A stretch of 727 nt of DNA, taken from Escherichia coli. Its GTDB lineage: Bacteria; Pseudomonadota; Gammaproteobacteria; Enterobacterales; Enterobacteriaceae. Made by a program: the position numbers and the translations under genes. Of the stretch, positions 1 through 727 are shown piece by piece. The stretch is from NCBI RefSeq assembly GCF_003334405.1, contig NZ_QOWM01000055.1, one strand, 5' to 3'. Below the pieces are notes generated by a model, which searched no databases, was not told where the DNA came from, and worked only from the letters and a program-made list of their open reading frames with translations. How positions within the stretch are numbered: position 1 is the first letter of the stretch; each line of letters starts with the position of its first letter.

Positions 1-684
1 ATCACAACTGATGCGATGGGTTGCCAGAAAGATATTGCAGAGAAGATACAAAAACAGGGAGGTGATTATTTATTCGCTGTAAAAGGAAACCAGGGGCGGC
101 TTAATAAAGCCTTTGAGGAAAAATTTCCGCTGAAAGAATTAAATAATCCAGAGCATGACAGTTACGCAATGAGTGAAAAGAGTCACGGCAGAGAAGAAAT
201 CCGTCTTCATATTGTTTGCGATGTCCCTGATGAACTTATTGATTTCACGTTTGAATGGAAAGGGCTGAAGAAATTATGCGTGGCAGTCTCCTTTCGGTCA
301 ATAATAGCAGAACAAAAGAAAGAGCCAGAAATGACGGTCAGATATTATATCAGTTCTGCTGATTTAACCGCAGAAAAGTTCGCCACAGCAATCCGAAACC
401 ACTGGCACGTGGAGAATAAGCTGCACTGGCGTCTGGACGTGGTAATGAATGAAGACGACTGCAAAATAAGAAGAGGAAACGCCGCAGAATTATTTTCAGG
501 GATACGGCACATCGCTATTAATATTTTAACGAATGATAAGGTATTCAAGGCAGGGTTAAGACGTAAGATGCGAAAAGCAGCCATGGATAGAAACTATCTC
601 GCGTCAGTCCTTGCGGGAGCGGGCTTTCGTAATCTTTCCCTGCTTTTTGTACTAAATAATTCGCATTTTATGTTTAAAAATTGA
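1..684 (+). CDS. ISAs1-family (H-repeat-associated) DDE transposase, C-terminal portion; 5'-partial, start codon upstream of window
   Basis: Seen in sequence: frame 1 is open from base 1 (ITTDA precedes the first ATG at 16) to TGA at 682..684, so the ORF runs off the 5' edge. The ATG at 16 is probably an internal Met, since the conserved 'TTDAMGCQ' block straddles it. Established knowledge, from memory: '[15 protein letters not shown]' (second catalytic Asp, codon 10..12) and '[44 protein letters not shown]' (catalytic Glu, codon 412..414) are characteristic of ISAs1/H-rpt transposases (DDE_Tnp_1-type). Full-length homologues are about 375-380 aa, so roughly 150 N-terminal residues are missing from the window. 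Confidence 0.85.
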
Positions 685-727
685 GATATTCCTTATTACC
701 TGAAGCTGTTTTTTATTGCTTATACAT
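1..727 (+). mobile_element. Fragment of an ISAs1-family insertion sequence (H-repeat-like element); right boundary not determinable from this window
   Basis: Inference from the transposase CDS filling 1..684. Elements of this family are about 1.2-1.4 kb with the transposase occupying most of the length, so the right terminal inverted repeat should lie within roughly 50-150 bp of the stop, either in 685..727 or just past the window. The left end is off-window, so the inverted repeat cannot be paired or located. Confidence 0.65.

Follow-up and report, generated by a model that had tools for sequence, protein, structure and literature searches.

The 727 bases of Escherichia coli DNA analysed here (the window) cover the 3' 60% of an ISAs1-family element, the ISEc1-like, RhsC-linked H-repeat that corresponds to K-12 ybfL. 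In all likelihood the copy is a decayed pseudogene, in which a 3' frameshift and a probable upstream TAA are combined with intact putative catalytic residues, D172 and E306. It is an allele of the ybfL pseudogene already known from E. coli and is not new. Its importance is low: a known H-repeat pseudogene appears here as a short repeat contig of a draft assembly. The window is the entire contig QOWM01000055.1 (GCA_003334405.1), and the upstream DNA is absent from the record. Its features are the following.

Positions 1-618, plus strand: 3' part of ORF-H in the native frame, codons 169-374 of a 378-codon ISAs1-family transposase gene, the ortholog of K-12 ybfL.
Positions 10-12, plus strand: GAT, encoding D172 (numbered on the full-length protein), the predicted second Asp of the DDE triad, in ITTDAMGCQ; at least 90% conserved and the first residue after beta4.
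Positions 412-414, plus strand: GAG, predicted Glu of the DDE triad (E306), in HWxIENxLHWxLD; invariant in 115 sequences, on helix 304-316.
Positions 615-617, plus strand: G-run with a 1-base deletion, GGG in the window versus GGGG in the other copies aligned; a -1 frameshift.
Positions 619-684, plus strand: frameshifted, non-native tail of 21 residues and then a TGA stop, replacing the native SGLS and its stop.
Positions 625-642, plus strand: right terminal inverted repeat TTTCGTAATCTTTCCCTG, partner of the K-12 left repeat; it encloses the native TAA at 630-632.
Positions 643-727, plus strand: 5' leader belonging to ybfD, the next H-repeat copy in tandem, and matching the leader that follows the ybfL left repeat (CTTTTTGTACTAAATAATTCGC...).

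Frame 1 of the window is open from position 1 to position 681 (227 codons) and closes with a TGA at 682-684. An exact look-up of the 227-residue translation returned NCBI entry RCQ29563.1 / WP_114481673.1, named 'ISAs1 family transposase, partial [Escherichia coli]'. Against the NCBIfam model NF033564 (transpos_ISAs1) the translation scored 201.3 bits, for a cutoff of 70, and aligned to profile positions 141-314 of 314, and it matched Pfam DDE_Tnp_1 with E = 6.6e-16. These scores argue that the frame-1 ORF is not due to chance. With a score above the cutoff of the curated model, the window protein is a member of the ISAs1 family, which comprises 29,453 cluster representatives at E <= 0.001.

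By megablast, 5,343 of the 5,426 complete E. coli genomes searched contain sequence matching the window, at a median of 5 sites in each. The top matches, at 99.7% identity, were the ybfL loci of KL53 and ET12567. The best-match locus lies between ybfC and ybfD, beside an RhsC remnant and upstream of ybgA and phrB, and the order in K-12 is ybfC - ybfQ - ybfL - ybfD - ybgA - phrB. In RefSeq the CDS at this locus is a pseudogene of an ISAs1 family transposase, with an 'internal stop' flagged in KL53, MG1655 and RM9513. RefSeq also flags the ET12567 ybfL copy as interrupted by an IS10-type element (annotated ISVsa5), and the ybfL-locus CDS of WEM25 as truncated at its 5' end, with IS1 adjoining. 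ET12567 is derived from K-12 (according to its record, by way of strain GM2929), and the inserted transposase gene occupies 2461-3669 of its locus (L002).

Searches of the window for features of other kinds found no Rfam family and no terminator-like site, and promoter-like sites were no commoner than in shuffled sequence. An antisense ORF on the minus strand (345-584, 79 aa), lying within the transposase gene, is probably spurious, as family, promoter and conservation evidence all fail to support it. We found no other notable feature on either strand of the window.

Elements of the ISAs1 family have terminal inverted repeats that start with CAGGG (ISfinder). The right repeat in the window ends in ...CCCTG, and the left repeat, which is off-window here, was read as CAGGGAAAGATCACGTAA in the K-12 ortholog; the CAGGG ends of the family are therefore present. 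In K-12 the repeat pair (positions 2270-2287 and 3542-3559 of the locus, L003) is 89% complementary, and CAGGGAAAGATCACGTAA on the left and TTTCGTAATCTTTCCCTG on the right bound an element of ~1,290 bp, of which only the 3' 642 bases fall in the window. ISAs1-family elements measure about 1.2-1.5 kb and have one transposase ORF; the K-12 ortholog, at 1,290 bp with one ORF of 1,137 nt, is within this range.

Insertion of ISAs1-family elements produces a target-site duplication of 8-10 bp, which marks insertion and not membership (ISfinder). No such duplication flanks the K-12 ortholog, where ...AGTTGTATCC precedes the element and CTTTTTGTAC... follows it. The K-12 element abuts other H-repeat fragments, an arrangement that would fit rearrangement via recombination. 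In the window, the leader of the ybfD copy is joined straight to the right repeat, without a left inverted repeat of its own, and in both KL53 and K-12 the start of ybfD lies ~37 bases past the window end.

A preliminary description of this DNA had assigned the Asp at 10-12 and the Glu at 412-414 to the catalytic DDE triad. We confirmed that both codons are present, and the assignment agrees with the conservation of the two residues, with a structural model and with a fold match to Tn5. Aligned across 115 family representatives (35-54% identity), E306 was invariant, and D172 and D109 were each conserved in at least 90% of the sequences. D109, in the motif IAIDGK, is the remaining triad candidate and lies off-window. 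An AlphaFold2 model of the full-length protein, built on the 115-sequence alignment, reached a pLDDT of 95 and a pTM of 0.92. The order of elements in the model is beta1 (105-113), beta2, beta3, alpha1, beta4 (168-171), alpha2, beta5, a beta-rich insertion (221-286) and helices spanning 292-316. D109 is placed in beta1, D172 right after beta4, and E306 past the beta-rich insertion, on the helix that carries the Glu motif. The predicted placement of the triad is thus the RNase H-like DDE layout. With acidic residues modelled on beta1, after beta4 and on the following helix, the first of them contributed by the off-window D109, the protein is predicted to belong to the DDE transposases. We conclude from conservation, topology and fold that D172 and E306 are two of its three predicted catalytic carboxylates, and that both are intact.

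A Foldseek comparison of the model with the PDB gave Tn5 transposase chains as its top six matches (4dm0, 3ecp, 1muh; E 4e-9 to 7e-9, probability 1.00, TM about 0.5). The relationship to Tn5 was visible by fold comparison only, and the sequence and profile routes to characterised transposases gave nothing. The full-length protein searched by phmmer against solved DDE transposases yielded chance matches only (E > 0.4), and so did the 115-sequence profile searched against PDB sequences. The hhalign probability was 0.25% against the IS10 transposase alone and 0.35% against a 36-sequence IS10 profile. With Tn5 (IS50, IS4 family) the protein shares an RNase H-like core, a beta-rich insertion before the Glu-bearing helix and a match to Pfam DDE_Tnp_1; it differs in sequence, with ~10% identity and no detectable sequence or profile similarity. 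From the fold similarity to Tn5 alone, we infer that cut-and-paste chemistry may apply to this protein.

A review of the IS4 family, in which ISAs1 is not treated, gives Y-(2)-R-(3)-E-(6)-K as the family signature at the catalytic Glu (PMC2266710). This signature is absent around E306, where the Y, R and K positions are occupied by I299, H302 and L313. The window protein is thus IS4/Tn5-like by fold, yet it is not a member of the IS4 family sensu stricto. The missing signature fits the standing of ISAs1 as a separate family.

The region corresponding to full-length residues 171-218 (window about 7-150; TIDAMGCQ...LKGNQ) also matched YenC2, a toxin subunit of the Rhs type (4igl_B), weakly in the profile search (E = 0.73). 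The match is curious since H-repeats adjoin Rhs genes; with an E value that is not significant, we set it aside as chance.

The 227 codons had also been described as free of frameshift and internal stop. The frame is indeed open over 1-681; however, one G is missing at 615-617, and the last 21 codons are read-through. The window and K-12 ybfL have in common their locus, the right inverted repeat, and the way in which the ybfD copy is joined on. From K-12 ybfL, as from the copies of KL53 and ET12567, the window differs at two places over 727 bases: a G for A at 264, which is synonymous, and one G lost from GGGG. The native protein ends in ...VLAGSGLS, and its TAA stop lies within the right inverted repeat of the element. 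In the window, native coding ends at 618 and the frame shifts after window codon 206, so that 206 of the 227 open codons are native. The out-of-frame codons (619-681) traverse the right inverted repeat into the neighbouring copy and leave the native stop at 630-632 out of frame. The effect of the deletion is to rewrite the last 4 codons and to lengthen the ORF by 17 codons. An open frame in a window is therefore no proof that a frameshift is absent, as 21 of 227 codons here lie past the true end of the gene.

The window copy had further been proposed to be possibly transposition-competent. A functional autonomous IS copy has an uninterrupted full-length ORF, and the 3' frameshift in the window already breaks that ORF. 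In other strains this locus also has an upstream lesion. In K-12 and KL53, ybfL has a TAA at codon 18 (PDYR-stop-AWKVEH). Exact matches to a 70-base query built on the 5' background specific to ybfL were found in 2,669 complete-genome records when codon 18 was TAA and in 5 when it was CAA. We inspected two of the CAA copies and found them to be ybfL/ybfD deletion recombinants annotated as truncated ybfD; we thus rejected these two non-stop versions as intact genes.

The 1-base deletion allele itself is rare. None of the 5,426 complete RefSeq E. coli genomes has it, and exact-pattern searches found it neither in GTDB species representatives nor in JGI metagenome contigs. Three longer contigs, from other NCBI assemblies, do carry the allele. 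Exact look-up of candidate products turned up gene calls that end in the frameshifted tail and begin at codons 26, 32 and 161 of K-12-type ybfL; another gene call with an identical tail is HAI1963400.1. Two of the carriers are clean, a 4.70-Mb contig of GCA_900607355.1 and a 44-kb contig of GCA_012530995.1 (L011 and L012). Upstream of the window region both have a sequence identical to K-12 ybfL, including the TAA at codon 18, the kind of upstream premature stop that the preliminary description had named as evidence against an active copy; K-12, KL53 and RM9513 have the stop at this locus as well. The third carrier, CP082330.1 of GCA_019884625.1 (L013), is too indel-rich to read. In this 4.78-Mb record frameshifts abound across the locus (2167-6524), with several interruptions of ORF-H and a photolyase gene in two pieces, which suggests an uncorrected, indel-rich long-read assembly whose deletion copy is weak evidence.

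Judging from linkage in the genomes that share the rare allele, the window copy very probably carries the codon-18 TAA off-contig. We conclude that the copy is very probably not transposition-competent. One genome paper states that transposition of E. coli H-repeats has not been observed (PMC3032704). We propose that a copy of the ybfL lineage would first have had the TAA at codon 18 and would then have acquired the 1-base deletion as a second lesion, and that the deletion would have extended the ORF through the right repeat into the next tandem copy. A deletion on an allele that already had a nonsense codon is the pattern that neutral decay predicts. The encoded protein is placed in a DDE transposase family of predicted Tn5-like RNase H fold, and its gene here is very likely decaying.

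The deletion, and perhaps the G at 264 as well, could instead be an artefact of assembly or sequencing, so that the true sequence would be a plain K-12-type ybfL ending in SGLS. We consider this improbable. The deletion sits in a homopolymer and is the allele that complete RefSeq genomes lack, a 727-bp contig is of the kind that repeats yield in draft assemblies, and one carrier, CP082330.1, is ridden with indels. Against an artefact, the same deletion recurs in independent assemblies, among them the otherwise clean 4.70-Mb and 44-kb contigs with K-12-identical upstream sequence. This recurrence points to a real, rare lineage allele. Whether the deletion is artefact or real, the copy is a pseudogene either way and our verdict is unchanged.

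At position 264 the window has a synonymous G (GGG, Gly) in place of the A of ybfL-type copies, including K-12 ybfL and the contigs that share the deletion allele; the window thus matches no copy with a readable 5' end. G is the base of ISEc1/yhhI-type copies. Among complete E. coli genomes, no copy has both G264 and the bases typical of ybfL at 300 and 375. The G could be derived from a short gene-conversion tract, from a point mutation or from the mixing of reads in a repeat contig.

The intact H-repeat ORFs of the ISEc1 type (yhhI, ydcC; WP_000420797.1) share with the window copy the 378-codon architecture and the positions of D109, D172 and E306. They are uninterrupted, whereas the ybfL lineage has the codon-18 TAA and the window allele adds the 3' frameshift. 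In strain CT29 (NZ_CP032073.1, 2952-8778 of L009; also L007), we observed four tandem full-length ISAs1/ISEc1 ORFs without pseudogene flags. The ORFs of this array are intact at 378 codons, repeat with a period of 1,267 bp and are flanked by ybfC on one side and by the usual truncated ybfD on the other. At the 5' start copy 1 resembles ybfQ, and the 5' part of copies 2 to 4 is of ybfD/ybfQ type; every copy reads CAA at codon 18 and is ybfL-like in its 3' part. Over the window region these copies differ from the window by 2 to 4 substitutions and the deletion. All of them differ at 375, copies 2 to 4 also at 300, and copy 4 also at 78 and 102. Copies 2 to 4 have the G264 of the window and copy 1 differs there. 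K-12 ybfL, which differs from the window at 264, is identical to it at 78, 102, 300 and 375.

A second explanation for the contig would be an origin from an intact, CT29-like recombinant in which a ybfD/ybfQ-like 5' part is joined to ybfL-like 3' sequence; such a copy would have no stop at codon 18, only the C-terminal frameshift, and might be active. It would draw on the four intact copies of CT29 at the same locus, with their near-identical 3' half and, in three of them, G264, and on the position of the frameshift, which begins at residue 375, past the last predicted helix (365-373) and in the lowest-confidence stretch of the model, so that the fold need not be destroyed. We regard such an origin as very unlikely, because copies 2 and 3 mismatch the window at two positions (300, 375) and copy 4 at 78 and 102 in addition, all of them positions at which K-12-type ybfL matches; because the intact CT29 type is much rarer at >=99% (167 records versus 1,093 for the ybfL type), with most CT29-type records among the matches listed being at other loci (yhhI, ydcC); because both cleanly assembled deletion carriers have TAA at codon 18; and because internal array copies have no left inverted repeat, so that such a unit would not be mobilisable as a normal IS. 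We therefore retain the decayed ybfL-lineage pseudogene as the probable source of the contig.

The RhsC H-repeat array varies between strains. K-12 has ybfQ-ybfL-ybfD (L003, 2033-4438), KL53 has one ybfQ-position/ybfL copy only (L001, 3497-4633), and strains 357900 and MB50 have ybfQ and a ybfL/ybfD fusion (L004 and L005, 2972-3730). These differences fit frequent homologous recombination among tandem copies. The CT29 ORFs appear to have been regenerated from a stop-free ybfQ- or ybfD-like 5' part and the ybfL 3' half, and then amplified by unequal crossing-over. A more general suggestion, which we make tentatively and consider doubtful, is that ybfL (5' nonsense, intact 3' half) and ybfD (intact 5' half, truncated 3' end) are tandem copies with complementary defects, from which unequal crossing-over can regenerate and amplify intact genes. 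If this were true, the 3' half of the 'dead' ybfL, in which D172 and E306 are intact, would be a reservoir for resurrecting a working ISAs1 transposase.
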